The notes beneath the pieces are model-generated. The model did no database searches. It was not told the DNA's origin and was given only the letters and a program-made list of their open reading frames with translations. Positions 14,988-52,600 of a stretch of 64,000 nucleotides of DNA are shown here, piece after piece. The DNA is from a virus (lineage: Duplodnaviria; Caudoviricetes): IMG/VR virus record IMGVR_UViG_3300020360_000085, positions 96,001 to 160,000 of that record; one strand, given 5' to 3'. How positions within the stretch are numbered: the first letter of the stretch is position 1; each line of letters begins with the position of its first letter. A program made the position numbers and the translations under genes.

Positions 14988-17570
14988 TTAGATCTGTTTA
15001 ATTGAACTATCTAGAGTATCTAGTTTTTTATTTGATGTTTTTAGTTCTGCAAGTGCTAATGTTAATATTTTGGCTTCACTAGATAATTCGTCTATTTCTC
15101 TTGCTTCACCAACAGTCATACCGCCCATGGATTCTGCACCTGCGGCGGCACCTAAGAAACTGAGACTTAAACCGCCTCTATTACGTTGTTGTTGTACCTG
15201 TGCATATTGCAGTTGTTGTTGCTGTTTTTCTGCAACTTCTAATTGTTTTTCCTGTGTTTTCTTTTTATTAATACTGGCTATTCCATCATCGTCAAAAAAG
15301 ATATCTTTTAAAAGACCAAGACCTCCACCTATTGCGGCACCTACGGCTGTGCCTATCACAGGTATTACACTACCTATAGCCGCACCATAAAGAGCACCTT
15401 GACCTACATCACCTAACGTATCCACTACACGTCCACCTGTTGTAGTCTCTCCAAGTGCATTACTTCCAGCATTGGAGACCGCTCCAACAGCCATTCCTCC
15501 TAAGGCAAATGCGCCTCCTTTCATCAATCGACCGCCCATTCCTTTGCCAAAAATTCCTCCGCCGGCGGCCATGCCTCTTGCGGCCATTTTTGTCATTAAG
15601 AGATTCCAGGATGTCAACATACCTGGGCCTACACTCATCCATAATGCCAACATGGCTGTTGAAATAGCGGCATAAATTGCCGAGGCACCTAATAAGACCC
15701 CAAATGCAACTACAAGACCGCCAATTACTTGAGGATTAGAAAATAATGCACCAAAGAATGCCGGAATTGCTACAACAAGAGCCTCCATGAGTATTGCAAA
15801 TGCGGCACTTAAAGCCGTTACTAAATAATTTGTTAGTCCACCTACTAGATCAAATTGTCCTTTACTATCGAAAAACCCTTCCATGACATCTTCCACAAAA
15901 TTAATAAGTTTATCTCCAAACTTATTGAGTCCGTTTACAATGTTATTAAGAGTGGCATCAAAATTATTTACAAAATTACCGCCAAATATTCTCTGTACAA
16001 ATCTATTAAAAATACTACCTAATGTTTCACCAACTCTACTGGCAATTTGTGAAAGCCTGGAATTTGCATCACTGGCTGAGCCTAATGCATCTGCAAATTG
16101 TTTTAAGCCACTTTCAGCACCTAGTACTAAAGAATTTTTAAACGTACTTAAAGCACCTTGTCCTAATTTAAGAACATTTTCAAAGTTTGTCATTGCACGT
16201 TGTATGTCACTAAATCTACCTGCAACTTCTCCCATTCTGAAGTTTTCTCTGGCATTAGCGGCATCTACTGAGAAACCAATTAATTGCTGTACAACCTGTT
16301 GAAGATCATTTGGTAGGGCGGCAACCAACTGTTTTAAATTACCAGTGTCTGTGGTTTCTACTGCATTAAGAACTCCTAACACCCTGCTTTGTACCTGATC
16401 CATTGTAATGGAACCATTTCTGATAGCCATTCCCAATCCAGTTAATTCATCTCTGAGTTCAGGAGCAAAAGGACCTAATGCATTAATAAAATCACTGGCC
16501 GCTTCTGAACCAATTGTAGCAACTTCTAAAATACCGCCTAGAACTTCATCTGGTATGTTTGCGGCTTTAAGACCCTGGAATAAACTGTCTGTGGCATTTA
16601 CAACATCCTCTCCCAGAGGTCCTAGTGTAACCAGTAACTGCTGAAATGCTTTGTCATTGTCTATAATAGATCTGGATTCGTTTCGTAAATCATCAGCACT
16701 TCTTCCCAAAAGTGTTGAAAACATTCTGAGATTTTTTATACTCTGTTCAGATGCTCTGGCAGTTTCAAACTGATTAATTCTGTCTCTTAATAATATGCTT
16801 GTCCTAAATGCCAAGTCCTCTTGGAAAAACTGTGTTGCATCATCTAGTGCTACACCTAACTCAGTACCAAATTCTGTAAGTTTTAAAAACTGTTGATTTA
16901 ATCTGGGTATTGCACTTTGTCCAAGAACTGCGGCTGTTTGTGAAAAGTTTGCCAATAATGAAACTGCTTGATCAGTTGTTAAACCCAATTGGTTTAATTT
17001 TGTAATATTTTCAACAGTGGATATTGTACCTTGTCTTTGTACATCTCCAAAAGCACCACCAACATCAGTAAGTGTTTTTAGACCGTTACCTAAATTTTGT
17101 ATAGAAGAAAAGAATACTCCAACACCAGTAACACCTACAGCAAATAAGCCAGTAACTAATTTTTGTAACAGACTTCCAAAAAATGAAAAACTGTCTCCCA
17201 TACTTCTTTGAAAATTGGAGGCAAGTTTTTTAGCATCCTGTTGAGCCTTAATTTGTGCTTTTCTTTGCCTGTTTGCCTCAGCCTGAGCCTTATTAAAGGC
17301 ATTAACTGTTGTTTCTGTATTTTTATTATCGTTTTCTGTTTGTTCTTCAATTACCTGAACAACTTTTTTAGGATCATTATCATCTATAGCCTTTTTAATT
17401 TCTTCATCGTTTTTGCCAGACTGTTTCATGAGGTCTCTCATAACACCCTTTATAGTGTTGCCAAGACCATCCATGTTTTTTGCAAGTTGGGTTAAAGTTC
17501 TTTCTGTTGCTACATCATTTTCAATTAATAGCCTTTCACCGTCCCCATATTCTACTTCTATCTGCGCCAT
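14988..17570 (-). CDS. Tape measure protein
   Basis: 860 aa, predominantly helical and A/G/L-rich, with hydrophobic segments and a glycine zipper near the C-terminus. Lies head-to-head with chaperone-like genes. Confidence 0.75.
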   Translation of the reverse strand: MAQIEVEYGDGERLLIENDVATERTLTQLAKNMDGLGNTIKGVMRDLMKQSGKNDEEIKKAIDDNDPKKVVQVIEEQTENDNKNTETTVNAFNKAQAEANRQRKAQIKAQQDAKKLASNFQRSMGDSFSFFGSLLQKLVTGLFAVGVTGVGVFFSSIQNLGNGLKTLTDVGGAFGDVQRQGTISTVENITKLNQLGLTTDQAVSLLANFSQTAAVLGQSAIPRLNQQFLKLTEFGTELGVALDDATQFFQEDLAFRTSILLRDRINQFETARASEQSIKNLRMFSTLLGRSADDLRNESRSIIDNDKAFQQLLVTLGPLGEDVVNATDSLFQGLKAANIPDEVLGGILEVATIGSEAASDFINALGPFAPELRDELTGLGMAIRNGSITMDQVQSRVLGVLNAVETTDTGNLKQLVAALPNDLQQVVQQLIGFSVDAANARENFRMGEVAGRFSDIQRAMTNFENVLKLGQGALSTFKNSLVLGAESGLKQFADALGSASDANSRLSQIASRVGETLGSIFNRFVQRIFGGNFVNNFDATLNNIVNGLNKFGDKLINFVEDVMEGFFDSKGQFDLVGGLTNYLVTALSAAFAILMEALVVAIPAFFGALFSNPQVIGGLVVAFGVLLGASAIYAAISTAMLALWMSVGPGMLTSWNLLMTKMAARGMAAGGGIFGKGMGGRLMKGGAFALGGMAVGAVSNAGSNALGETTTGGRVVDTLGDVGQGALYGAAIGSVIPVIGTAVGAAIGGGLGLLKDIFFDDDGIASINKKKTQEKQLEVAEKQQQQLQYAQVQQQRNRGGLSLSFLGAAAGAESMGGMTVGEAREIDELSSEAKILTLALAELKTSNKKLDTLDSSIKQI

Positions 17571-17668: not shown

Positions 17669-18544
17669 ATGTCAAATAACAATAATCCTTTAGCAGGTCA
17701 TTTTAGGACCCCTAAACTTTATACTGGATTACCTAGTGCTGGTAAATTTTACAGTGAAGATATTCTTGAAATGCCATCAAGTGGAGAACTTCCAGTTTTT
17801 CCTATGACTGCTAAAGATGAAATAATGCTAAAAAATCCAGATGCGTTATTAAATGGAGAAGCAGTTGCTACTGTGCTTATGAGTTGTATTCCAGCAATCA
17901 AAAAGCCACGTAAATTAGTTTCTAATGATATAGATGCATTACTGGTTGCTGTACAGGCCGCAACTTATGGAGACGAGTTAGAAGTTGGTGCACCATGTCC
18001 TGCATGTGGAGAAAATACAACAGCAGTTTTAAGTGCTGAAGTTGTTCTTTCTAGTATGGATACCTTAGATAAAAATTATGAATTTACAACAGACACAGGT
18101 TTGCTTATTAGTATGAAACCATTTAGTTACGAAACCTCTGTTAAGGCTGGTGTGGCAAATTTTAGAAGTAGTAGAAGTTTGCAATCAATAGATGCCATAG
18201 AAGATGAGATGGATAAAATTAAAGCATTTAATAAAAACTTTATTGAACTTGCAAGTCTTAATTTTGATATACTAGTAGATAGTATTAGTAGCATAACAAT
18301 ACCAGCAACAGACGACAACGAGCCACTAGTAGTTAGTAATGAAGAGCATATAAGAGAATTTTTAGAAAATGCTGATGCTCGTATAGGCACAGAACTAGAG
18401 TCATTTATTGAAGAAATTGGTAATATAGGAATACAAAAGAAAATGGAACTAACAGTTGGAGAATCATGTATTGAAAAAGGTTGTCCCGAAACTTTTGAAT
18501 CTGTTGTAAACTTTAATACCGTAAATTTTTTCACGGCTTCCTAG
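17669..18544 (+). CDS. gp26: gp26-like baseplate hub / tail assembly chaperone
   Basis: NPLAGHFRTPKLYTGLPSAGKFY, VFPMTAKDEIMLKNPDALLNG and a CPACG motif. AGGAG RBS. Confidence 0.7.
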   Translation: MSNNNNPLAGHFRTPKLYTGLPSAGKFYSEDILEMPSSGELPVFPMTAKDEIMLKNPDALLNGEAVATVLMSCIPAIKKPRKLVSNDIDALLVAVQAATYGDELEVGAPCPACGENTTAVLSAEVVLSSMDTLDKNYEFTTDTGLLISMKPFSYETSVKAGVANFRSSRSLQSIDAIEDEMDKIKAFNKNFIELASLNFDILVDSISSITIPATDDNEPLVVSNEEHIREFLENADARIGTELESFIEEIGNIGIQKKMELTVGESCIEKGCPETFESVVNFNTVNFFTAS

Positions 18545-18567
18545 CACGATCTGAGCCAGAGGAGGTA

Positions 18568-18765
18568 GTGGCATACCTTAGGAGGCTGAACGACGAATCA
18601 AATGCCATTAATAAAGAAATTACCCAAATGGTAATTTTTTGTAATGGTTCTTTGAGTTTTAATGAAGCCTGGGAAATGCCAATGCCACAAAGACAATTAG
18701 TTATTAAAACACTAGAGGACTTTTATAAAGCAAAAGCAGGCAAACCCACAAATGAAGAACTGTAA
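18568..18765 (+). CDS. gp51-like small chaperone, probably expressed as a -1 frameshift extension of the upstream gene
   Basis: LSFNEAWEMPMPQRQLVI motif. The reading frame is open from 18517, across a slippery site in the upstream gene. Confidence 0.6.
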   Translation: MAYLRRLNDESNAINKEITQMVIFCNGSLSFNEAWEMPMPQRQLVIKTLEDFYKAKAGKPTNEEL

Positions 18766-31858: not shown

Positions 31859-32052
31859 GACTGTTTTTTAAGTTCGTCTTGTAAGTCTTGAATTTTTACA
31901 TAAGCACGATATTTCATATCCTGCTCATCTTTAATATTTTTTTCCAGCAATTTAATATGATTTTTTAGAACCTGACATTCGTTATTTTTTTCAACTAACA
32001 TACGTCTTAATTCTTCTTCTAAGGTATCATTTAATGTTGATATATCTGCCAT
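31855..32052 (-). CDS. Small coiled-coil hypothetical protein
   Basis: 65 aa. Coupled to the upstream hydrolase gene. Confidence 0.55.
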   Translation of the reverse strand: MADISTLNDTLEEELRRMLVEKNNECQVLKNHIKLLEKNIKDEQDMKYRAYVKIQDLQDELKKQS

Positions 32053-32678
32053 TATTTTTTTCCAAAAATTGTTTTATGTAATAAGTCTGTTACATTGTTA
32101 TTTAACAAAACAGCACTATGACCTGCTTCTATAAAGGTAGTTTCACTAGATTTAAATTTAGGTGGTGTAGCACTTTGGCTGTCACAATCTATCATACCAT
32201 CATTTGCTTTACCTCCTAAACCTGCAACAGGATTAGCACCTTTTGTACATACAATATTTGTGTGTAGTCCAGAAAATCTTTTTTCCTGTAATAGTGCTAA
32301 TACTTCTGCACCTGGTTTGGTATTTTTAAACATTAAACTGTTTCTCCAAAAATACCCGAAAATTCTTGCTACAGGTGTGCCCTGCCAAGGAGTTGCTATC
32401 GTAACTAAATGTTTTATTCTGTTTGGATACACACTAGCATACCAGGCCGCAAGTAGTCCGCCAAAACTATGACCAACTAGATATATAGGCTCTTTTCCAA
32501 ATTCTTTTTCTATTTGACGTCTAATTGTATCAACTACGTCGAATGGATCATCTTCCATGCTGTATTCAGGCGAAATAAACCTATGTTCTGGTAATTTTAG
32601 TGTATAATAGTTAAAATTATCAGGACATGCATTTGCACCATGTATGTAAACCACATTTTTCATATCTGTATTATACAT
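32052..32678 (-). CDS. Alpha/beta hydrolase (lipase/esterase fold)
   Basis: YIHGA oxyanion loop, GHSFGG nucleophile elbow, NDGMI Asp and GHS His. The start is either 32678 or 32663. Confidence 0.85.
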   Translation of the reverse strand: MYNTDMKNVVYIHGANACPDNFNYYTLKLPEHRFISPEYSMEDDPFDVVDTIRRQIEKEFGKEPIYLVGHSFGGLLAAWYASVYPNRIKHLVTIATPWQGTPVARIFGYFWRNSLMFKNTKPGAEVLALLQEKRFSGLHTNIVCTKGANPVAGLGGKANDGMIDCDSQSATPPKFKSSETTFIEAGHSAVLLNNNVTDLLHKTIFGKK

Positions 32679-36100: not shown

Positions 36101-37638
36101 ACTCTAGTGGACAAAGATTTACAGATAAGATTGTAGTTGAGTATGAAACATTTAAAGAAAGACTTACACAAAATATTAATTGGCACATCACTGGAACTGT
36201 TAGACAGCCTGATGGATATACTGATCCTGCAAAAGTTATAGTTGCACCTTTTGATACAGACAACGATTTAGTACCAGATAGACCGTTGCAGTTTGCAGAA
36301 TTTGTTGACAATAATGATTTAGTATATTTTGAACAATACACAGATTTTGATGGTTATACTTATGAAAAACCGTCTAAAGGACAAATTTTAGATTTTCGTG
36401 GAGAAACAGCACTAGTAAGAGATGATGCAAGTGATACTATAAGTCATAGTTCATATAATAATCCAGTATCCTTTTTATTAACTTCATGGATTATAGTAGA
36501 CACATATAATATGGTTACTACATATTTACAAAATGACACAGGCAAGTTAAAAGGTGTAAAAGTTTATGTTGTAGGTGATGAAAAAGTTTATTTAATGACA
36601 CCCAATAGTACAAACACAAGCCAAATTAGACCTGTAGAAACAACAAAATTTAGTGTAAAACAAGGAAGAGGCGAAACACAAAATACCCTTTTACCTGAAC
36701 AATTACCTATGGTGTTCAAATGGGAACACATAGCAGACAAAGATGTTAGAGTAGATCCTAGTATTAGTAATGTAGTGGAAATGACTGTTTTAACAAAAAC
36801 GTATTACAATGATGTATTAAAGTATATAAATGTGCCAGGCACAAGTTACCCTTTACCTCCCACAAATACAGGATTAGCAACACAATTTGAAGGCTTAAAT
36901 GAATTTAAGAGTGCAAGTGATTCTATAATATTCAAAAGTGGAGAGTTTAGAAGGCTTTTTGGTACAGATGCTGAATCAGATTTACAAGCAAAATTTAGAG
37001 TTGTAAAACTTTCTGATTCAATAAGTGATAATGAAATTAAAAACAGAGTTGTAGGTGCTATAAATCAATATTTTAATGCATCTAATTGGGACTTTGGAGA
37101 AACATTTTACTTTACAGAGTTAAGTTCGTATATTCATCAGAGATTAGAAGGATTAATAGGAAGTATTGTACTGTTACCAAAAAATAGTAAAGGCCAATTT
37201 GGGGACCTATTTAGTATTAAGCCTGAAGCAAATGAATTATTCATTCCAACTACAAAGGTTACTGATATAGAAATTATTAGTAAACTTTCTAGAACAACAT
37301 TAGAAATAGAAGATACAGCAAATGTAAATGTGGCAAACGATGCCGTTAATACTTCAGGGCCATATGCTATTAATGGATACTATCCTTTATATGCAGATCA
37401 ATCTTTAGCAAATGCGGCCGGAAATGGTTCTAGTCATATACATAAATTTTATGGACAAGTATTTTACATGCCAGATGGTTTAGTTATGAACAAGACAATG
37501 TTCCATGGAAACTATACAGGAGACAGTACAATAACTGATTCTTCTAGTAGTTCATCCTCAAGTTCATCAAGTTCATCAAGCAGTAGCAGTAGCAGTAGTG
37601 GAAGTGGCGGTAGTGGTTCAAGTGGAAGTGGTTACTAA
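33109..37638 (+). CDS. gp6: Baseplate wedge protein gp6-like (1509 aa)
   Basis: DFTSYDFNTLR..MVNYIR, ENFLETAERRDSV..LARMLGY, FTDGNFG and QNRMVSAQDY motifs. Confidence 0.85.
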   Translation: MAYSERQNNLFAAEDWKIAYKAFSNVDFTSYDFNTLRLAMVNYIRNNFPENFNDYIESSEFIAIIELIAFVSQSLAFRMDMNSRENFLETAERRDSVFKLARMLGYTPRRNVPASGLAKIVSIETNENITDSLGNTISNRPVFWDDANNPDAYEQFITILNSALSNTNRFTSPSKKGKVNNITTEIYRIVRQISASQAFPFTSSVQGGKRNFEIVDADFIDGSYFYERHPDPLNSFGIIYRNDGLGISSNNSGFFVMFKQGTLTSKTFNFTTPIPSRTQDLEVDGINQTDLWLQEIRPTGSVISKWTQIPNTVGQTVNFNAQQANTRDLYAVESLFGDQVRFKFTDGNFGRIPTGVYRTWYRTSDGENYMIQPEEMRNKTVTIPYTNQQGVNYNLKITFALQTAVNNGLPTESISNIKKNASQVYYTQNRMVSAQDYNVFPYSKSSNIQKLKAVNKTHAGHSRYIDINDPTGTVQNVELFGDDGYLYKEYKEYSTTTTISPNNTANNFVENTLPLILRNQGLNNYLYETARKKWVTYKNNSFDLESLDITWRPLPVASIGNTGYMTETSSVNSAGSESVLTNTYETFKQIQENNFIKFVNPDNVAEYKWVRITKETNAGLLTSGLSTATGPWTLSAEVPSGWKAHEVIVTLRKKLQGSEIASVQSQIENKKTFGLGYNPTFVSSNLLADTFYVIENENLDKTNPFDVIDVGKTLGTPIDSSWFLLFTYVPIDENSYKYDITVRGENYIIQSNSEIKFYNINNVKVVDTNNKSNMDKISITTLNNKPGSSERFRWYNSNPGVDNLGDSWYSEETGAYTTPTASSYSIGLPLRSRDTKWFDVGFNWESNFGILRVPNSGLKADVISLNTFVNDASVSVNTYFDDGTAAALTSNVTVANNLGRISKIPGNITIPFTNTTFGYNILNSEGNVMYKQYNTGTATVEIFHANSSGVTHSFGVGGATHNASSLGRLILANVDVATETGNLIYTDLENQNYLYAEDSSGQRFTDKIVVEYETFKERLTQNINWHITGTVRQPDGYTDPAKVIVAPFDTDNDLVPDRPLQFAEFVDNNDLVYFEQYTDFDGYTYEKPSKGQILDFRGETALVRDDASDTISHSSYNNPVSFLLTSWIIVDTYNMVTTYLQNDTGKLKGVKVYVVGDEKVYLMTPNSTNTSQIRPVETTKFSVKQGRGETQNTLLPEQLPMVFKWEHIADKDVRVDPSISNVVEMTVLTKTYYNDVLKYINVPGTSYPLPPTNTGLATQFEGLNEFKSASDSIIFKSGEFRRLFGTDAESDLQAKFRVVKLSDSISDNEIKNRVVGAINQYFNASNWDFGETFYFTELSSYIHQRLEGLIGSIVLLPKNSKGQFGDLFSIKPEANELFIPTTKVTDIEIISKLSRTTLEIEDTANVNVANDAVNTSGPYAINGYYPLYADQSLANAAGNGSSHIHKFYGQVFYMPDGLVMNKTMFHGNYTGDSTITDSSSSSSSSSSSSSSSSSSSSGSGGSGSSGSGY
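37540..37635 (+). repeat. Low-complexity Ser/Gly C-terminal tail of gp6
   Basis: Encodes a long Ser run then GSGGSGSSGSGY, using mixed TCN/AGY codons. Confidence 0.85.
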
Positions 37639-40600
37639 TGGCTGAAAAATTATTTAAAAAATTACCTGATATTTTACAGACAAGTGCTGTAAAGAATTTC
37701 TTTGATAGTACTGTAGAGCAACTTTTTAGTCCTGCAAATGTCGAGGTAATTAATGGATACGTAGGTAAGCAAAAATCAGAAGATTATAATGTACAAGGTG
37801 CATTTATAAGAGAAAGTACTGCAAACAGGCTACATTATGCATTAACACCTGCAATTAATACACTAAATTCTAATACAGGTGTAAGTGAAAATTTTATTTT
37901 TTATGACGAACTAGTTGACACTATAAAGGTAAGTGGTGTTAATACTATAAATCATAATAAAATTTTTAGTACTGATTACCAAACATTTTTACCACCAATA
38001 GATATAGACAAATTTGTAAACTTTCAGGAATACTACTGGAGTAATAATGATTTAGATGCTTTAGTTGTATCTGGAACACTATCTAATCCTATAGACATTG
38101 ATTTAGATATTATAGGCAAAAAAAGTTTTACTTCTCCAAATAACATAACATTAAAAAATGGCATGTGTGTCAACTTTTCAGGAGAGTTTGTCATACCGCA
38201 AAATAAAACAGGAATAGATTACTATGTAGAAGGTGTTGGAGAGTCGATACAACTAATACCTAAAATACAAAATGTTGCTACAGGATATTCTACAGCAACA
38301 TTAACAACCTGGGACAATACAATTTTTACTGAACTAGATAGTAATGTTAAACATACTGCAGGTAATATTATTAGTGTTAATATAGACAATGCAGGAAAAG
38401 GATATCTAAATCCTACAGTACAATTTACAGGCTCTAATACAACTTTAGCAACAGCAACAGCAAATAATGATATTTCAGGCTCTGTTTCAGATGTTACAGT
38501 AACAGCAAACGGATTAGGATATAGTGCGCCAATAGGTATTGTGGTCACAGGTACTGCCGTAAGTACTGGCATAAATGCAGGTAACACTTTTGTTTCAGAA
38601 CTTAATGAAGATCAATCCACACGTTTAACTCCATATAACAAAATTGCAATAAATGATAGCAGTAATATTTTTTTAAATCAGGAAGTAATTGTAAATAATG
38701 AAAGAACAACTGTTACAAGTTTATCAAATAGTTCTATAATATCTATAAACAATATTACAAATGGATACGATACAAATAGAACAGCAGGAATATATACAGT
38801 TTCCGGTTCTAGTGGGGGATCAGGTACTGGACAAAACTTTAGTATTACAGTATATAGTGAAACTAAAATACAAAATTTTGTAAACGTAAACGATCAAAAA
38901 TCTACCTGGAGTAGCAATACAACAATAGTAAATGCAAGAACTAGTATTACAAAAACTGGTCTTGCCACAACAGGAGGTACTGGTTCAGGAGCAACAGTAG
39001 ATGTAGTTTATAATGCAGATGCAAACATAACAGTAAGTATAAACAACCCTGGACTAGGATATCGTAGAGGAGATACTCTTACAGTAGCAGGAAACCTTAT
39101 AGATGGTGTAAGTGGACCGAACTTAACATTCGATGTCTTAGAAGTAGAAAAACCATTAGGAATAAGAACACTAGGAAACATTACATCTGGAGGTTCGCCT
39201 GTAGATGGAAATTACTTAATAGACATGGCTAATACTGTTGTATCAGGAAATGTTTCAACATCAGGCTCTGGTAAAGATGCAATTTTTAATGTAACAGTAA
39301 GTTCAGGAAATGCAACTATAGTAATAGAAGATGGTGGTATAGATTTTGTAGAAGGTGATACTTTAGAAATAAATGGAAATGTAATTAATTCTAGTGCTAC
39401 AAGTAATATCAGTTTCACAGTAGACAATGTTATTGCACCAGGTGATACAACAATAGACATTTTAAATGGTGGTACAGGACATGCTGTAGCCGATACTATA
39501 ACCATTACAGATGCTGATTTAGGCAGTGGTGGAGGAACAAATTTAAGTTTTGGCGTAGCAAGATCAGGTAATGTTTTAGGATTAGCAGATACTGTAAATC
39601 TAGATCAAGGTTCTAATCTAAGTGTACAATTTATTGCTAGTGGCTTCGAAGCAACTGTTAGAACTGACATGTATAACTTTACATCTAATTCCAGTGGTAC
39701 TTTTACAACTGGTGTGTCCTCAATGGCACTTGCAGGTGTAGATCCAAACACAGGAGATTTTTATCTTGGCGGAAATCCTGACAATGCTTTAAATTATGGT
39801 TGGGACTTAGATGAAGATGGTGATGGCACAGGTGATGCTGTATGGGGAGGCAGAACTTCCCAAGCAAATCCAGACTATAATGTAATAAAACGTGGAGCCA
39901 AAAATAGGAATATTTGGAGTAGGGTAAACTTTTGGCATCATAAACAAAACTTTTTAGATGCAAATGTCAGTGTACCAGAACAACAATACAGAGCCGTAAG
40001 ACCTATTATAGAATTTAATAATAATCTTGAACTTTATAATCATGGAAGTAATTTTATTGGAGAAATATTAGTTGTTGAAAAAACTAGAACAATAAATGAT
40101 TTAAATGGTGCACCAGTAAGTATTTTAGTAGATGGTTCACCACTAGCCGTAGGCGCCACAATAGTATTTCCAAATGAATCTACAGTAAATTCTAAATTTG
40201 TTTATAAAGTAAGTCATAGTAATGCAACAATACAACTTAATAAAGTAGGAGATCCTAATTTAAATCCTGCAGGAGCAGAAGAAGGGGACGGAAATTTTGT
40301 TCCTCTTGAATTTGCTGAAGGTGACGTTGTAAATGTTAAGGCTGGAGAAACTGTTATAGGAACAGAATGGTATTATACAAATGGTAAACTCTTACAGGCT
40401 CAAGAAAAAACAAAATTACATCAAGCACCTTTGTTTACTCTTTACAACGATTCAGGAAATTATTTAGGAAATACTAGTGTTTATGACAAAACAGATTTTA
40501 TAGGAAATAAAATATTTAATTATAAAATTGGTAGTGGTACAAACGATAGTATTTTAGGCTTCCCTTTATCTTACAAGCAATTTTATAGCAGTAGTGAGAT

Positions 40601-43600
40601 AGAATTTGAAAATTATTTAGAAACGAACAGAACAATTTTTACAGAAAATAATGCAAAAACTGAAGTACCAGGTTACTATTATTTTAAAACAACTGATAGT
40701 AATTATCATACTAATTGGTTAAGCAGTAATGAAAAATCTAGGCAACCTATAAAAACTTTTTATTATATTGACAGATTTGACGTAAATGATGAAAATTTAA
40801 TTTACTTTGTTGGTTGTTTGCCTGATGTAAAATTAAACACTCCTAGTGGCTACGATATAATTGTAGAACAAAATGGGAACATAATATCAGATTATACTTA
40901 CACTGAAAAGGGTTTAATTAAATTTAACAGTTTTACATTTAATGAAAATGATGTTATAGAAATAACTGCATATAGTAAAACTGGCTTAATCAGTGAACGT
41001 AGCATCAGCAAGTATAACATACCTATATCATGGGATAGGAATACACAAAAATTAGACATTAAAAATATTTCAGAGCCCGAATATTTGACACATTTTTCTA
41101 ATTATATGAAATACACTAATAATTTTAGTGGAGAAAGTTTAGGCTCAAATAATTTTAAAGATTTAGAAAAAACTACAAGTAGTGCTACTGATATAATAAA
41201 AACAGACGAAAATTTAATTTTAGGTGCATTTTTATTAGATGATAAACCTCATAATTTGTTAAATGCAATAGAGTTTAATCATAAAGAATACATTAGATAT
41301 AAAAATAGATTAGCATCTGAAGTTACAAAATATTTAGACACAGTAAATCCAGATGAATATTCAAATGAATTTATTTTAGAAAAAGTTTTACGAAATGTAA
41401 TTAGTTATAGTGTAGGTAACGATGTTTTCCAACAAAGTTATACAATACCTTTTGGTGACAACTATGTACAAGAAGAAAAAATTATTAACTCATTAAATGA
41501 CACTTCATATACTTTGTCTAATTACTATGACTTCAGTTTAATAGAAAATACTGTTCAAGTTTACAAAAAAAGAGGTACTGAAGTAGAATTACTAGATATA
41601 GATATAGACTACACACTAACTTCTAATGCAACTGCATCTACAAATGTTATTGCACCAACATCTACATTAGATTTACAACTTGCAGACACATTAATTTACA
41701 AAATTTACAACAAAGAAAGAGATAGTGCAGAATGTCCTCCAACACCTAGTGTTTTGGGACTATATCCATTACATGAACCCCAAATTTACACAGATAATTC
41801 GTTCGATAGTCCAATAGAAGTTCTTGTAGGACATGATGGTAGTAAAACTGCAACAAAAGGCAATAGAGAAGATCAAATTTTACTAGAATTTGAAAAGAGA
41901 ATATTTAATAGTGCTAAAAAAGAGTTTAGACAAGCAAATAGTTTACCAGAATTAAGTGTTTTTGATGTTAGAGCAGGTAAATTTAGAGAAGATTACCTAA
42001 CACATAGTGAATGGTATGATTTAATGAGATCAAACTTTACATCGTGGGCAAGAGAAAACAAAGTTGATTTTGTTAAAAATGAATTTTACGATAATAATAA
42101 AGAATTTACTTGGAACTATAGAGGTAATTTAACAATACCAGGATATTGGAGAGGTTGGTACGAATATTATTATGATACTGTAAACCCGCACACAAATCCT
42201 TGGGAAATGTTAGGGTTTTTTGAGAAGCCAAGTTGGTGGGACACTCAATATATTACAACTACATACACAAATTATGGTAGTAATAATACACCTATGTGGG
42301 AAGACATAGAAAGTGGTTTAATTAGACAGGGTCCTAGAGAAAATCTAACAGATAATTCTTACAAAACAGATAACAAGTTTGCAAGATCTGGATTAAAAAA
42401 TTTATTGCCTGTTGATAGTAATGCAACTTTAAAAAGTCCTTACAATATTGACACAACAGGCTCAACTACTAGGGCAGAAGTATATACAAACACTATAGGC
42501 AATACTAGTATAGGGTATAATACTACAAGTTTCTTAAATGTTGATGGAGTAAATGTAAGATTTGACAGTTCTAATGTTTATATTAGTAATAAAAATTTAC
42601 CAAACTATGATTTAAGTAAAATTGACACATCGGATGGCTCATTACCCTGGAAGGCACTTGAATTTAGTTATGCAATACCTAGAGTAAATTTAAATAGCAT
42701 AACAGAAAGCAATACATCACTTAATTCAGATAGAATAGGTGTGTTAGTAAACGGTCTTACATTACATAATCCTAATAGTGGTACCACATACGATAATGGT
42801 GGTAATTGGACATACAATACTGGATTTAGACAAAAAACTAATAGAAGTAATGGAATAATTTCTACAACAGATAATCAAGGTGTTGTAACCACAACAGTAC
42901 CAACATCTGATATGAGTAATTCCACAGTATGGGGTAATAGTACATCACACTCAGGCATAATTGGTTGGGCATTTGATGGATTACCAATTTACGGCCCATA
43001 TGGATATACATCTTACCATGCAAACGGATCAGTAAATGATAATAGTATTACAAACATTAAAAGCAGTTTTGAAATTAAGCCTGGTGCAAGAACTTCACAT
43101 CCTAATGGCGCTCACACAGGATTATTTTTAGAAGATTATCAATATAGTGCTAGTTTGGCTAGTCAACCTGGAAGAACTGGTAAATTTAATACAAGATATG
43201 GGGTAACACCAGATTCTCCTAGTACACCTGTAAGATTTTATGTAGCAACAATAGATGATAATAGTGAACCAATGTTCCCTTATGCTGTAGGTGGTGGTAC
43301 AACTAGTGATAATACCTATAATGGAAGTTATTTCGCAACACCATTAGATACTACTAACAACAACAAAGGTACTGTAATAGAACCTTCAAGTGTAACAGGT
43401 GCAGTATCTAGTAGTTTTGCAATCACATTAGAAAATACAGCAGTAGATTTAGATAATGAATGGGTATTTGGTGATGGTGCACCAGTAGAAAATGCTTGGA
43501 AATATAGTTCATCATATCCATTTGCTATTACAACAGCATTATTACTTTCCAAACCAGGAAAATTTGCAACTGTTTTTGCAGATCCTATAAGACAAGTAAA

Positions 43601-46600
43601 TTCTAAATTAGGCGGGATAGCAACTATAGATGTTACTTCAAGAAGAACATGGCAGTATAACAATAGCGATAATTTTGTTATACATGGAACATTTGATAAT
43701 GATAATAATTTTTTAACAAATATAGGTTATACACAATTTATTAAAAGTTGGCTAAATTACCAAAATTTTAATATTTCAAGCGAATTTAGAGACCCATTAC
43801 TAACAGTTAATACAAAATTAAGCCACAGAATGGCAGGATTTGTTGATAGTGATACAGCAACAATTAAATCAGACCAGTATAGTACAACTGGTAATGCAAC
43901 AAGTTTAATAATACCAATAGAAAATAGAAATATTTCTATACATGATAGTGGATATAAAACAAGAAATAATTATTCAGGCATAATTATTGAAAAAATTGAA
44001 GATGGCTACAAAGTAAAAGGCTTTGATACATCACTGTCATATTTTAATATTTTAGAAAGTAATAAATTAGGTGCTTCTCAAACTGTAGAAAGAGGCGGAG
44101 TACCAGCAGATTATGTGAATTGGTCTTCTAATAAAGCATATCCTTATAATACTATCGTGCAATATTTGGGTGTTTACTATCAAGCAAAAGATGATATACT
44201 AGCAAGTGATAGTTTTATTACAACACAATGGACACGATTACCTGCTTTACCGCAAGTAAATGGTATAAGAGGAGTTTTTTATGCAGAGTCCACAGGAATT
44301 GTTAAAAGGGTAGATTATAATTCAGAATTTACTACAGCACAAGATGTATTTGACTTACTTGTAAGCATAGGCAGATATCAAGAATCTATAGGTTATGACT
44401 TTGGTGACTTTGATAGCACTATAAATGCTGTTAAAAATTGGAATTATTCTGCAGAGCAATTCCTATTTTGGGTATCAGGTGGTTGGGAAATAGGAAATAC
44501 ATTAGAATTATCCCCAGGATCATCTAAAATTAGTTTTAATAAAGACATAGAGTTTGTTTCAGAAGTAAAACGTGTAGATAAAAATCAATTTAGTATTTTA
44601 GATCAAGATGGTATTGCAATAAATCCAAAAGAATGTGAAATTATTAGAGATGGTAACAAATTTGAATTAACTCCACCTATAGGAAAACAAATTTATAACA
44701 TAACTTTATATACAAAACAGATAGAGCATGTATTAAGTTTAGATAATATAACTGAATTTAATGACACCTTATACAATGATTTGTATAATCAAAAACTTGA
44801 ACGTCTATTTATAAAAGGTAAACGTACATTAGGGTGGGAAGGAAGGTTAAGTTCAGAAGGCTTTGTGATAGATGGAGGAGAACTACAACCTAATATAGAT
44901 AATATTACCTCTACAATGGGAGATTATCATAGATTAGGATTTATTCCTGTAGATAAACAAATTTATAATGTATCGAGAGGATTAATAGGCTTCGAAAACA
45001 AACCTTACTTAACAGAATTGGGGATTGTTGATGATGACCAAGTAGAATTTTACAAAGGTATGATACAAAGTAAAGGTACTTTGGACTCAATTAGTAAAAT
45101 TTTAAATAGTAATGCTATTGTTCAAGGTAATGTTAGCATATATGATGAATGGGCTCTTAGTGCTGGGTCATTTGGAGACTTAGATAATAATCAAAGTATA
45201 GAACTAAGGTTAGAAAAACAGGAAATTGCACAAGATCCTCAATTAGTAAAATTAGAATTTCCTGAAGATATTACAGGCATTGTAAATGAAATTGTAATTA
45301 CAGAAAGAAATACAAGTTATTTTGAAGTTCCTGAAATAGAAATATCAGCACCTACAAAAGATCCTAAGAAACAAGCAAATGCAGTTGCAAGTATAAAATC
45401 CGATGGCACAATAGATACTATTACAATAACAGAACAGGGTTCAGGTTATGAAGAAGGAAATACATCATTAACCGTTTTAACATCTAATTTAAATGTTTCT
45501 AAAAATACAACTACATTTAATTATGTAAGTGCATTAAGTAGTGCAAACTTTCCTGTTGCAAATGTTACAGGCATCGCAAATATAACAATTATAGATCATT
45601 TTGCAAGTAATACGTCTGCACAAACAATAGATTTATCAGCAGTAACAGACGTTGCAAATGTTGTTACAGCAATTAACAATAACGGTGTAACTAATGCAAA
45701 TATATCAGCCACAGCAATACAAGATGGCTCTAATACTGTACAACATGTTTTACAAATAAATGGTAGTGACTTTACTTTGGGCGGGTCAGGACTAGCAAAT
45801 TTAAATATTACTGGTGCAAGATATCAGCCAAGACAACGATATGGAATAATTACAGCAAACAATACAGTAGTTTCAGACGTTGTTGTTGCTGTAGAAGATG
45901 TCAATGTACCAAGAACAGAAGGAAATGTAACTTATTGGGAGTACGATGCAGGAGACAGATTCCAATTTACAACATCAACATTAACTATTAGTGGAAGTTA
46001 CGATGTAGATATTTCATCACTAACAGGTTTATTAAATAGCAGTAGTGTACTAGCAGACGAAAACATAAATTTAGTTGAAGGACAATATTTATACATAGAT
46101 GTTTATGTAAATGGAAACAAATTAGAAAATACTCCTAGCCAATCTCAATATAGTGTACCCAATAATACTACTGTAAGAATTTCAGATGTTACAAATCTTA
46201 CTGAAGGGAATATATCCCCTAATGCAAATATTTATATTGTAGAAAAAGCAACAGTTGATTTCACAGACAGTTATCAGGGAGATGTACCAGCAAGTAATTT
46301 AACAATAAAAGTACAAAATAATGAAGGATTTAGTGTACAATTAGGCAGTAAACGTATTTTTGAAATTACCCCAGATATAAAAAATGATGAAATTATCACA
46401 ATAGATATAGACGATAATAAAAGATTTCTTAAAAAGCCTAGTGGTATAAGAACTAATCAAATATGGCCTGCTACATCTAATATTGACTATACAGGTGTTA
46501 AAGACCCTGAGTATAATAAAATACCTAACGCAGGATATGTAGATAGAAAGCAAGTAACATACCAATCCTTTGGTGTAATAGACTTACCTCAACTGTTTAG

Positions 46601-49600
46601 TAATGATAGAATATTTAAACCTAGTGCAAACAATTTAATACATGTTGCAAAAAGTGAAAATAAAGATTGGAATGTTTACAAGTTAAGAGAACCAAATGAC
46701 GAAGGAATATCGTTTATAGAACAAGAAGGAATAGACGATACAGCATACTTATATACAACTGTTGATTTATTTAATTATGTAGACAGTAATCAATTACAAC
46801 AAGCAGACTTGTCAAGATTTTTAGACTACACATTAATGGTTAAAAATGTTGAAATATCTGACAATGTTGTATTTTGGACTAACCAAGAAGTAGTAGATAA
46901 AAAATCTGCACTTATTAAAAACTTTGGTGCAATAAGTATAATACAATCAAATGTTAATACTGTTGGTGTTAGTAACACATCTCCATTCTACAATGAGTTT
47001 ACAGCATTAGCACCAGCACCAAGAAGTAAATTTGTAGGCGACATAGTAAAAGCAGACGCAAACAATGTTGTTACAATGTCAACAGAAATTAATACAATTA
47101 AAAATGGCGACCAAATCGAATTACTTGATATGGGTAATACAAATACTACTCATAATGCAACAAGTTTACAACATTTAGATACTGCTAATGCAACAAGTGG
47201 TTCAGCAGGTGCAATTTACGATAGTAAAATTACAATTACAGCAAGTAACTCTGCAAACGTATCTAAAATAGTTTCAAATTTAACAGAAGTAGAAATAGCA
47301 TTTACAGGAGCCAATGTTGGAGATTATGCGTCATCAGAAGTTACTAATTTAAGATATGTGCCTTCAAATGTTGACTATGCAAATGGTACTTTTGATATAC
47401 ATACAGATGATATAAATTTCCAAAGTTACTTTGGTAATGTTGCTAATAGTACAATTACAGGAGTTACAAATGCGATTTCAAGTGTAGCATTTACTGTGTT
47501 TGAAAAGAGTAATGTACATTTACAAACAGTAACAGCAAGTAATGTAAACTTAGGTGCAGGTACATTTACATTCTTACAAAGTAATGTTACTGCAAACGCA
47601 AGTAATATTTTAGGAAGACTTTTATCTAAAACTAAATTTACAGTAGAGCAACATAATTTCTCAACAGGAGAAATTATTAAAGTATTATCAAACAATATAA
47701 GAGGATACTATCAAGTAGAAAGTGCAGGACTAGATACATTTGTACTAAATGTTCCTTACCATGCAAATTTAAGCAGTACAGGTTATATTTTAACACCAGG
47801 CTTACACATTAAAACTTCAGAGGATCATAATATTCCAGTTGACTATAATGGTAAACGTGTAATGATACATCAGGCAGAAAATCCATATTACAACCAGGTA
47901 TATAAAGTCAGTTATGTTAAAAGTAATACAGAAATAGTTTGTGAAGATGTTTACGCCTGGAATGCCATGGAAACAGATGTAAGTCCTAGTTATACTGCAA
48001 CAGTAGACGGTGCTGTAACAAAATCCAATAAAATAAAATTAGATTTAGCAAGTGTACCAAGACAAATTGGTAGAATGATGATAGTTACTGGAACTGGCAT
48101 AACAACTAGGGTTATTGTAACAAATATAGATAATGTATTTAAAAATGGTGAATTTACAGTAGATCAAGAATTAACACTTGCTGATGGAATAACATTAACA
48201 TTTGAGAAAGAATGTGTAATGACTACATTAGATCATAATGTAGTAAAATTAAATAATACAAGTATTAGAATAGATGATATAACTTCTCCACAAGGTATAT
48301 TAGAATCTATAAACAAAACACAAACAATAAAAAGTGGAATAATTAATCAAAGAGGTAACCAGTTTGGTTTAGGTATCCCAATGTTAAGGAAACCTAACCT
48401 ACCTGATGGTACTCCTTATAGTAGTTTTGCAGGTAAATCTCCTTATGTAAGAAATGAAGACTTATCAGAAAGTTTAACAGAAGGACTTGTTAAAACAGGC
48501 CATATTAAAATTAATACAGATACTAGCAGTTATAAACCTTTCCAAAAGAATGCTGTTGTTGATAATATATCTACAAGATATGGCAATAATTTTATACCTA
48601 ACAATAATTACGGAGGAACTGGCAGTACAATAAACAACTATATAGGACAACCAAATTACTATGGGGGTTCTGGAGATGTAACACAAACAGGCAATAGAGG
48701 ACAACAATATGCAAAAAGTCCTGGTGCTGTAGTTGACATACCAGTTTTTTCTCCTGATATAGATAACACTAATCTTAACGCAGGTAAAGATACACAATCG
48801 CCTATTTTTACAGGGCAGGCTTTAGAAGACGCACCAGATAAAAGATGTGGTCCTGACGCATGTGCTACTAGAAACTTCAGAGGCAAACCATTAAATGAAG
48901 TAAAAGGTTCTGGACCAATACAATGGGGAGTTACAAACTTTGCAATAGCAAGTGCAGGAACAATTACAGTTTCTGGTTCTATTACAGGTAGTGGACATGG
49001 TAAAAGACTTTGGACTAGTGATTATTCAGGATACTATAGTCCTGCTGGACAAGTTGGTGGTACTGCAAACGGCGGTATAACAAAACGTGCAATAGCAGGT
49101 GCTAAAACTTGGTCAGATAATGGTAGCACTAAATCATTTAACTTACCTGTTAAAGTAACTGAAAGCGGCATAATTTATTTACATGCTTATCAGAGTGGTA
49201 GAGGCGGTTACAACACCTCAACAGTTAGTGTAGCAACAACAAGTGGTAATGTTACAATAGATACCACATCAGTAATAGCAAAATATATAGGTAAAGAAGG
49301 ACAAATAGATGGACCGTCTAATGGTGTAATTAGAGTGGCCATGGAAGCAGGTTCCGAAATTATGATTACAGGTACTTCCAAAGGAGGAGGTAACCATTGG
49401 CATAGTTGTGAGGTACATGTTTCAGGTGCAAGAAATGGACTTAGCAGGTTAAGTGAAAGAATAGAAAATGCAAACAATAACTCAGGAACAGGAACTCCAG
49501 CAGGTGTTGGCAGTGGTGATTTTACATTACATCATTACAGCGATGAAAAAGGTGTTAGAGAAATAGAGGAGTTTTATTTTGAAACACCAGGCTCTGGTAC

Positions 49601-52600
49601 AGCAGTAATATTATTTGAACATTATAGTGGCTATGATGCTATACAGGTATTCCAAGGTCATGATAAAGGATCTACATCAACTGTAATTGCAGAAAGTGAA
49701 GCAGGCCAATTGCGTAGATTAACTAATGATGAAAGACAAGAATTAAAAAATCAATTTGCTGTTAATAAAGGCGGCACAATGACTGGTTCTGGAAATTATG
49801 CAAATATAGATTATGATAACCATAACTTAGGGGCACCAACAAAATCAAGTCCTCATTTAGGTAACAGAAATGTTGCAGTTGCTTATGCAGGTGCATTAGA
49901 GTTTAGTATAGATTCAACACAAGGCACTCACATAATGGTAAGAGTACCTAAAAACAGTTATGTATTTGACCATATAATTAAATTACCAAATGGTACACCT
50001 CCACCAGACGATCCAGGACAAGATCCTAATCCAGTAGTTCCTTGCGGACAAAATGCATCTATACCATCAGGTCCAGGCGATACTACAACACAACCACCTG
50101 GAGGTAATACATCAGGTACAGGAGGAAGTACAGGAAATCCAAATACAGGCGGAGGTAACAACTCAGGTTCTACTACTCCAGTAAATAATCCTGGAGGTGC
50201 CAGTGGAGGTAGTGTTGCTCAAAACCATACTAACTCAAGTGCTATAATAGGAAGTAATGCAAATGGTCCATATGTGTCTCCTGCTACTCAAACTTTAGTA
50301 GCCAATAATGTTTTAAATATTACTAAAAAACAGGGTGCCTATAGTTCCTTCTCAGGAATATTTGGCCATGGCAGATCAAGTTTACAAAAAAATAATTATA
50401 ATATACAATACTTTGCACAAACTTCAGGATTTTACAGACCTCCAATGACAGGACTAGCATTTGTTCCAAGCATATTTAGAAAAACAGTTAAAACAGTAAC
50501 TCAAACAAATTATGGCGTACCTATTTCATTAGCATCGGGAAGATATGTAAATAATCAAGTACAAAAAATTAGTGGAGGTTTTGTTGTACCACTTGCTCAA
50601 AGATTAACTAGCAATATTCCATTACAAAGTAGGCCTTTAAGAAATCTAGATGCAAGAGAACTTCCTTACTATAATGCTCTAGATGCCAACAAGGCGGCTT
50701 TTGAACAAGGGGGCATGTTCCATAAATTTACTCCTAAGAAGATTAGTGGAGATTATAATTTAGGAAACGGTACATTTTTAGACATTACAGGTATGGAACT
50801 TACAGGTGCTGACATGGGATTTGGCCTAGGCGAACTGTTATACTACTCACAACCTTATAATGGTATTGGAATAGATGACGATGCTCCTGTAGACACTATG
50901 CCAGTTACACCACCAGATGATGCTTACCCAGTACAAGGTGGTACAGTAATAATGGACGATCCAGATATTAGGTATAATCCTAATATGCAAATAATACTTC
51001 AACCTAAAATCGGTAATCAAAATGGTGGACCTCCAATTACAATACCTTTGTATAAACCTAAACCAGGACATACTTTAGATTTAAGTAATTTATCAGGACT
51101 TGATCCAGAAGATACAATTACAATAAATGGAAGAACAGTAGGACCATTTAAAGGCACATCTCAAAGTGCTATCATGCATGCCATAAATTGTGTCGACTCT
51201 GTAGGATTTGAAGCATTTCCTATTGGTAGCGACCATGTTAGAATCAGCAGTTGTAATAATGTACCATTAACAATTAAGGAAGGTTGTTCAGGCGGTATAT
51301 ATAAGGAAGTATTAGATTTCCATATTAACAGGTCATTTACAGATCAAGAAGTTAGTAACACAGCAGTTATAGGTGCAACAACAAATATTTTAGATGCAAA
51401 TGGTTCTGTAGTTAATACTGCGGTATCATATCCATACTTAGATGTTGACGGTGGAATAATAGGCTATGCAAACTCAACTGCAAGTTCAGGTACAGTATTA
51501 TCTAGCAGAGTAGTTAGTACAGGTGGTAGCGGATACTCAGTAGGCGATAGATTAAGATTACTAGGCGGTACACCAATAAAAGATCCATTTACAGGTGTAG
51601 CAGAAATATGCATCAAAAATCCTGGAGCAGGATATAGTTTACCAGAAAATATTGTTGTAACAATAGGAGACGGATCAACTCCAGGTAGAAATGCAACTGT
51701 AAGTAAAGTAATATTTGACTCAAATAATGGTATAGAAAAAGTTGTATTAGCAAGTGGTGGTGAGGAATACGATGTAAATAGACCTCCAAAAGTCACAATA
51801 CAAGATTTAGGACAAATAGGACTTCCTACTACATACTCAAATGCATTAAGCAGAGGTGATGTAATAAGATGGGAAGATCATGGTATTACAGCATTAGGAA
51901 GTATTGGCTCAATTGAGGCAAATATAGTTGCAGGAGAATACTTTATAAATGATGTAGCAACAAATGAAAATGTAAGTTACTCAGCAAATTCAGATAAACT
52001 TGAAAGTAAAAAGGCATCTTTTAAAATTACAATTACAGAAACAGATGGTGTAAAATCTGCAAATGTAGATATAGTAAGTGCAGGAAATTATTGGGAAGTT
52101 GGACAAACATTTGCTATTAAGGCCAAAGAATTTAACAATGTTGAAGGAGCAGACTTTACATTTAATATTGCCGCTACATTCCCTAACATGTTGTTTTACG
52201 GACAACTTACGCAAGACTCTACAGATATAGATAAATTAGGAGATGCTCTACAATTAGGTATTATTAGTATTAAGAATGGAATATTACAACCACAACAAGC
52301 AAAACTAGAAGCAGTTTTACAAAATAGTCCATCAGCACAGATACCTAGAGTTGCAAAATTTGAAGTAACAAGTGTAGACCCTATAGGGGGCATTACAAGT
52401 GTTAAAATTTTAGACAGAGGAATATATAAAGTTTTCCCAAGTGATCTAACAAATGGTTTACCATTAGAATATGACCATGTATTACTAGGAGATGAGGCAG
52501 GATTTAATGCTGACGGTACTGTATATTCTGGAGGTTCAGGATTAGGACAATATAATCCATTAGATTTATCCTCACTATCATCTCCAGGAAATTATGATCC

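Follow-up and report, generated by a model that had tools for sequence, protein, structure and literature searches.

Evidence for a programmed -1 frameshift in a gp26/gp51-family gene of jumbo phages and other members of the T4 superfamily

Background

Sequence comparisons strongly support the presence of a programmed -1 frameshift in the gene located at positions 17669-18544 of the window, by which we mean the whole stretch of 64,000 nucleotides analysed here, taken from a tailed phage record of IMG/VR (IMGVR_UViG_3300020360_000085, positions 96,001 to 160,000). Through a slip of one base back on a run of T residues, a short and a longer protein would very probably be produced from one message. 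The best joint explanation of the data, which we hold with considerable confidence, is that this gene belongs to the family of bacteriophage T4 gp26 and gp51, that ribosomes slip into the -1 frame near its end, and that gp26 would be the T4 counterpart of its short form and gp51 that of its long form.

The frameshift giving rise to gpG and gpGT in phage lambda was reportedly described by Levin, Hendrix and Casjens in 1993, and Xu, Hendrix and Duda are said to have established in 2004 that a -1 frameshift is conserved among long-tailed phages in the genes for their tail assembly chaperones; the E/E+E' frameshift of phage P2 is a comparable case among tail assembly chaperones. To our knowledge, the T4-type phages are the notable long-tailed group in which no frameshift comparable to lambda G/GT has been reported for a chaperone gene. 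The literature that we searched contained no description of a frameshift in the gp26/gp51 family, and slippage was annotated in none of the genome records examined. In T4, both gp26 and gp51 have been listed as hub assembly chaperones, gp51 being required for assembly and absent from the particle (PMC3004832).

Results and discussion

The zero-frame gene and its genomic setting

The predicted product of the zero-frame gene (Table 1) matched the PF12322 family (T4_baseplate) over residues 36-256 with 45.7 bits, the cut-off being 24.5, and its match among PHROGs was phrog_150, baseplate hub. A search of the complete 250.5-kb IMG/VR record recovered a single copy of PF12322 (44.4 bits), which is this same gene. 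The genes near it encode a portal, a prohead protease, a major head protein, a late sigma factor, an SbcCD-like nuclease and baseplate wedge proteins. Relatives of the 291-aa ORF were identified by tblastn in jumbo myoviruses (Phosso, PA5oct, Atu_ph07, CBB, GAP32 and others), and a megablast search of the region against the phage nucleotide collection returned no match. When the AF2 model of the short form (pLDDT 78) was compared with the PDB (Foldseek, VIA), generic helical-hairpin matches were obtained and nothing further, and a sequence search of the PDB with the same protein came back empty.

Two further ORFs of this region deserve mention. The -1 extension ends in a TAATG, on which a SegE-like GIY-YIG endonuclease ORF begins (18765-19187, + strand; PF19835, E 2e-31). 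As the close relatives L004-L007 have the same ORF 3' of the extension, it was not inserted recently into this one genome only. Directly 3' of the 1509-aa baseplate wedge gene (phrog_10646), a single ORF of 6236 codons occupies positions 37638-56348 (+ strand).

Table 1. Features of the frameshift region and its neighbour, in window coordinates
Feature	Position	Strand	Basis or remark
Divergent neighbour, 860 aa, probably tail tape measure protein	14988..17570	-	Protein-language features
Zero-frame gene, short form, 291 aa	17669..18544	+	T4 gp26/gp51 family member
Overlap of zero and -1 frames, sole place for a joining shift	18517..18544	+	TAA 18514-18516, TAG 18542-18544
Two overlapping in-phase slippery heptamers	18523..18532	+	Sequence and relatives
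-1 extension, 77 codons and stop, predicted to complete the 365-aa long form	18532..18765	+	Homologous to T4 gp51 C-terminal tail
Stem-loop, candidate stimulator	18534..18588 (arms 18534-18544 / 18578-18588)	+	MFE stem
GAGGAGG and GTG 18568, possible secondary internal start, not conserved	18558..18570	+	2-nt gap

The slip site, the frame overlap and the predicted products

A preliminary description of this DNA had proposed that the upstream gene ends on two slippery heptamers, and both were found when the sequence was read directly. The last zero-frame codons are ACC GTA AAT TTT TTC ACG GCT TCC and, at 18542-18544, the stop TAG; both A_AAT_TTT (18523-18529) and T_TTT_TTC (18526-18532) stand in X_XXY_YYZ phase. 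The limits given there for the -1 frame were equally correct: this frame is shut by the TAA at 18514-18516 and open from 18517 up to the TAA at 18763-18765. Because of the first of these stops and of the TAG that closes the zero frame, a shift joining the two frames is possible within 25 nt only, around the T run.

According to the mechanism that we propose, the majority of ribosomes would terminate at the TAG at 18542 and release the 291-aa short form, while a minority would slip one base back on AAATTTTTTC, either in tandem on A_AAT_TTT or T_TTT_TTC or through slippage of the P-site tRNA-Phe on U_UUU. After the slip, these ribosomes would read CAC GGC TTC CTA GCA... up to the TAA at 18763, yielding a 365-aa long form that would bear a helical tail of 77 residues. 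The two heptamers lead to an identical product. The product sizes previously predicted were reproduced by our translation, namely 291 aa for the short form and 288 + 77 = 365 aa for the fusion, with the junction VNFFHGFLARSEPEEVVAYLR; the junction peptide of the predicted fusion is NTVNFFHGFLAR, and its tryptic form is GCPETFESVVNFNTVNFFHGFLAR. The efficiency of the slip is presumably low, which would fit a gp51 that is needed only 'catalytically'.

The window contains 50 ORFs of 100 aa or more, and apart from the gp26/gp51-family gene just one of them has a heptamer in phase ahead of a long -1 frame. This 208-aa ORF (32052-32678, - strand) ends in GGA AAA AAA TAA TG, with A_AAA_AAA in phase before the stop, and the 65-codon -1 ORF located 3' of it has an ATG of its own in the TAATG overlap. 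For this second locus, ordinary translational coupling is a simpler reading than frameshifting.

Conservation of the slip site and of the -1 extension

Relatives of the region were fetched from IMG/VR at 80 loci, of which 55-56, depending on the stretch compared, were non-redundant, with protein identities of 48-81%. An in-phase heptamer followed by an extension of 72-74 codons was present in 56 out of 56 non-redundant relatives, the outcome expected for orthologues if the site proposed in the preliminary description were genuine. As regards the type of heptamer, 47 of 55 non-redundant relatives carry both, seven have A_AAT_TTT alone, since the codon that follows is TCC, and one has T_TTT_TTC alone; the double heptamer is typical of the marine clade to which the window belongs. 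The overlap of 25 nt between the frames is common to nearly all relatives, and the zero-frame tail T-A-S-stop is conserved among them. Although valine is four-fold degenerate, the third base of the GTA codon is invariant, and this invariance, together with the seven relatives that have A_AAT_TTT alone, argues that A_AAT_TTT works in the clade of the window.

The comparison of four close relatives was also informative at the nucleotide level: the block GTAAATTTTTTCACGGCTTCCTAGC is identical across them, between flanks that have diverged, and synonymous changes in the -1 frame occur between the stop and the GTG. In the whole set, conservation of the protein encoded by the extension sets in at the first codon past the slip (consensus FFH-FLA--EPEEIV-YL). 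The variability of alignment columns in the -1 frame after the stop is 0.33/0.23/0.49 for the three codon positions, and 0.24/0.15/0.52 in the 21 nt that precede the GTG of the window.

The arrangement extends to cultured phages with about 30% identity. Phosso, PA5oct, Atu_ph07, Vibrio 2.275.O, Salicola SCTP-2 and CBB keep xxT_TTT_TTC, located 1-5 codons upstream of the stop and followed by a homologous -1 frame, and XacN1, at a similar identity, carries T_TTT_TTT at the slip position, again with a homologous -1 frame after it. Going by this pattern, the distant phages would depend on T_TTT_TTC. The extension itself found no family in Pfam or PHROGs, its tblastn search yielded a few jumbo-phage loci only, and in the PA5oct record no ORF is annotated over it. 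Judged by its conservation, the arrangement of slip and extension is not due to chance.

Relation to T4 gp26 and gp51

In T4, both gp26 (208 aa) and gp51 (249 aa) match PF12322 over about 200 residues, gp51 having about 48 further residues. In the window as in T4, one domain is encoded in a shorter and a longer version and ends in the ..FF.. motif; the sizes differ, the domain of the window being about 80 residues longer and its tail about 20 residues longer. Furthermore, the two forms of T4 are the products of the divergent paralogous genes 26 and 51, whereas a single gene serves in the window, with a -1 shift required for its long form. T4 gp26 ends in KEFFELL, encoded with the non-slippery TTC TTT, and gene 25 follows.

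While T4 has two copies of PF12322, there is one in each of the window genome, KVP40, S-PM2 and P-SSM2, and all four are equipped with the slip. In the latter three phages, the PF12322 gene ends in ..FF(V/A), T_TTT_TTC is found one codon upstream of the gp26 stop, and the -1 frame after gp26 comprises 57-60 codons. Both in their position behind gp26 and in their use of the -1 frame, the mini-ORFs present there agree with the extension of the window, and their tails are about 20 residues shorter. They have been annotated as separate proteins of 55-57 aa ('gp51 baseplate hub assembly catalyst'), none of them as ribosomal slippage, and the KVP40 record notes that its mini-ORF is similar to a C-terminal stretch of 40 residues in T4 gp51.

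Profile comparisons (hhalign) were in agreement with this similarity. The profile of window-type extensions matched the gp51 tails at 85% (E 6e-6), and gp51 plus cyanophage and KVP40 tails at 93% (E 3e-7) over the whole length; cyanophage and KVP40 tails matched those of gp51 at 97.9% (E 6e-13). The match to the single T4 gp51 sequence was weak (2%), the gp51 family alignment and the cyanophage intermediates being needed to connect the extension with the gp51 tail. The downstream frame had initially been called 'gp51-like', a designation that holds in the sense of a homologue of the C-terminal tail and not of gp51 as a whole, and which the same small ORF already bears, as 'gp51', in the three phages mentioned above. 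The homology of the tails, together with the genomes that have one gene and a slip, leads us to regard the short form as the counterpart of gp26 and the long form as the counterpart of gp51. In the T-even phages, gene duplication would have taken the place of the slip.

An independent downstream gene and the natural fusions

An alternative scenario is that of two separate genes without any frameshift, in which a 65-aa ORF is translated from the GTG at 18568, perhaps through re-initiation after the TAG at 18542. An SD-like GAGGAGG does precede this GTG, which lies 26 nt past the stop codon, and the position holds a start codon in 18 of the 56 relatives; in addition, small ORFs are called here by gene callers and in GenBank, both as 'gp51' in S-PM2, P-SSM2 and KVP40 and as many ORFs of 43-102 aa. 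However, only 2 nt separate the GAGGAGG from the GTG, as the preliminary description had pointed out, and 33 of the 56 relatives lack any ATG, GTG or TTG over the initial 25 codons of the extension frame, so that the GTG of the window is not a conserved entry into the frame. The 12 codons between the slip and the GTG are conserved as protein, with variation at third positions. Two genes would also leave unexplained why xxT TTT TTC is kept at about 30% identity, as opposed to the TTC TTT of T4, in which gp51 is separate.

Further evidence was obtained by searching the extension profile against 1.84 billion proteins. Most matches were ORFs of 43-102 aa, and their called starts were scattered over profile positions 1-43, which likewise speaks against a separate gene. 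Fusions in frame do, moreover, occur in nature: three proteins of 336-342 aa (P0191, P0199 and P0270) join PF12322 to the extension without a change of frame, and these matched the extension profile at 99% (hhalign, E 8e-18). On this evidence we regard a pair of independently translated genes as unlikely, while some independent initiation from the GTG at 18568 may take place in addition to the frameshift. The programmed -1 frameshift, which was the central proposal of the preliminary description, is backed by the slip site of the relatives, by the coding constraint in the -1 frame and by these natural fusions.

Two genes do exist elsewhere in the family. In the metagenomic locus L096 (51-2051), two PF12322 genes are adjacent, the first of 329 aa and without a tail, the second of 336 aa and with a gp51-type tail in frame. 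The presence of a tail-less PF12322-like gene ahead of one of the three in-frame fusions, on the same contig, defines a two-gene lineage, which is a second, independent two-gene solution besides that of the T-even phages. When the natural long forms were compared with gp51 over the whole length (hhalign), the N-terminal domain alone was aligned. An AF2 fold of a natural long form (3 sequences) reached a pLDDT of 52, with values below 50 in the tail, and was set aside.

Ribosomal or transcriptional slippage

The same protein outcome would be obtained if RNA polymerase added one U within the T run, and the window indeed contains a T6 homopolymer at 18526-18531. For efficient slippage, a polymerase usually requires some 7-9 identical bases in a row, whereas the window offers no more than T6 and seven relatives no more than T5 (AAT TTT TCC), with A_AAT_TTT still in phase in the latter. 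Moreover, the phase of the heptamer with respect to the zero frame is conserved, a property that matters to ribosomes and not to the polymerase, and a pairing-prone arm is located 3' of the site in most relatives. We consequently consider transcriptional slippage very improbable; the T5-T6 run, short for a polymerase, and the conserved phase both point to the ribosome, and we infer that the slippage is ribosomal.

Finally, although some sequencing chemistries often produce indels in homopolymers and three natural proteins show the single-frame form, an assembly or sequencing error hiding one true frame of 365 codons is hardly credible, as the same break with T-A-S-stop is found in 56 independent non-redundant assemblies, and the break is also found in the finished genomes of at least 10 cultured phages from different laboratories.

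The downstream stem as a candidate stimulator

Canonical stimulated -1 frameshifting involves a stable structure situated 5-9 nt downstream of the heptamer. The 11-bp stem that had been proposed to follow the site in the window is present, contains three G-U pairs and is the MFE stem, but the position of its pairing partner is not conserved in a fixed register, and its stability relative to shuffled sequences (z -0.8 to -1.2) lies within the range of the shuffles. The stem starts 4-5 nt past A_AAT_TTT and 1 nt past T_TTT_TTC, and is thus too close for the latter heptamer.

RNAalifold found no consensus structure among 56 sequences. In 61 relatives, the pairing energy between the 12 nt that follow the slip and the 70 nt beyond them averaged -13.0 kcal/mol, as compared with -6.8 kcal/mol upstream, -8.6 kcal/mol further downstream and -7.8 kcal/mol for shuffled sequences, the partner of this arm being located at different codons in different subclades. 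Strong hairpins (z -3.1 to -5.8) follow the site in Phosso, Atu_ph07, KVP40, S-PM2 and P-SSM2, and none was found after it in PA5oct, CBB, Vibrio and Salicola. With hairpins in some phages and not in others, a stimulatory role of a hairpin after the slip is plausible.

Comparison with lambda G/GT and the neighbouring gene

The features that the gp26/gp51-family gene shares with lambda G/GT include a -1 slip on a heptanucleotide close to the end of an assembly gene, by which two proteins would share their N-terminus, as well as two properties for which we tested and which were found here, i.e. a heptamer in X_XXY_YYZ phase and a conserved -1 extension without a conserved start of its own. A likely tape measure gene adjoins the gene of the window. 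The T4 homologues, in addition, are assembly factors that remain outside the particle (PMC3004832). In KVP40 and P-SSM2, the succession of a tail-tube-like gene, gp26, the -1 ORF and a gene of 529-656 aa without family resembles that of tube, G, T and tape measure in lambda. Unlike in lambda, the gene of the window is divergent from the putative tape measure gene rather than upstream of it, and is followed by the GIY-YIG gene; its protein is also much larger than gpG. No match to known tail assembly chaperone families was found in Pfam or PHROGs.

With regard to the neighbour, its 860-aa product scored 0.91-0.93 against tape measure families on the basis of language-model features, and is probably a tail tape measure protein; at 1.5 A per residue, this length would correspond to about 129 nm. 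Its homologue in CBB, CBB_251, is a virion protein according to mass spectrometry (MS), the gp26-like CBB_250 being absent from the MS list, and in the PA5oct record the MS-detected label is placed on the neighbour and not on the gp26/gp51-family gene. Among the genomes searched, PF25671 (T4 gp29) had no match outside T4, so that tape measure genes were assigned in the relatives by size, position and language-model features only.

Several observations were made in passing. The tail-tube-like gene of KVP40 (L119, 182000-190500) and of P-SSM2 (L120, 3000-12000) belongs to phrog_45, and the genes of 529-656 aa in these two phages are candidates for unrecognised tape measure proteins. In Acinetobacter phage Octan (MT409116.1, H95), the gp51 homologue is annotated as 'tape measure protein assembly chaperone', a label for which we found no underlying paper; at least one annotator, then, already reads gp51 as a tape measure chaperone.

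The equivalence with G/GT suggested in the preliminary description is hence favoured by T4 genetics, by the synteny of KVP40 and P-SSM2 and by the likely tape measure gene next to the pair, but no link in sequence or fold was found. By analogy, a role like that of lambda G/GT is plausible, and the pair may act as chaperones of the hub and the tape measure without being retained in the virion. A more specific version, to which we give slightly less than even credence, would make gp26 and gp51 the G/GT counterpart of the T4 superfamily: chaperones that would hold a gp29-type tape measure during the initiation of hub and tube, in a ratio set by the efficiency of the slip, the duplication in T-even phages being secondary.

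Conclusions

The slip signal connects two poorly understood assembly genes of T4, 26 and 51. Two protein forms would be generated by recoding in most of the T4 superfamily, including jumbo RaK2/PA5oct-like phages, KVP40 and marine cyanophages. Our results correct how the examined loci and records, and probably many others, are annotated: in these, the extension is split off as a 'hypothetical' or 'gp51' mini-ORF or is covered by no ORF. The slip site also provides a direct handle on the role of gp51. If the reading of the pair as a G/GT counterpart is true, gp51 would behave 'catalytically' simply because it is a long form of the GT type that is present in small quantity.
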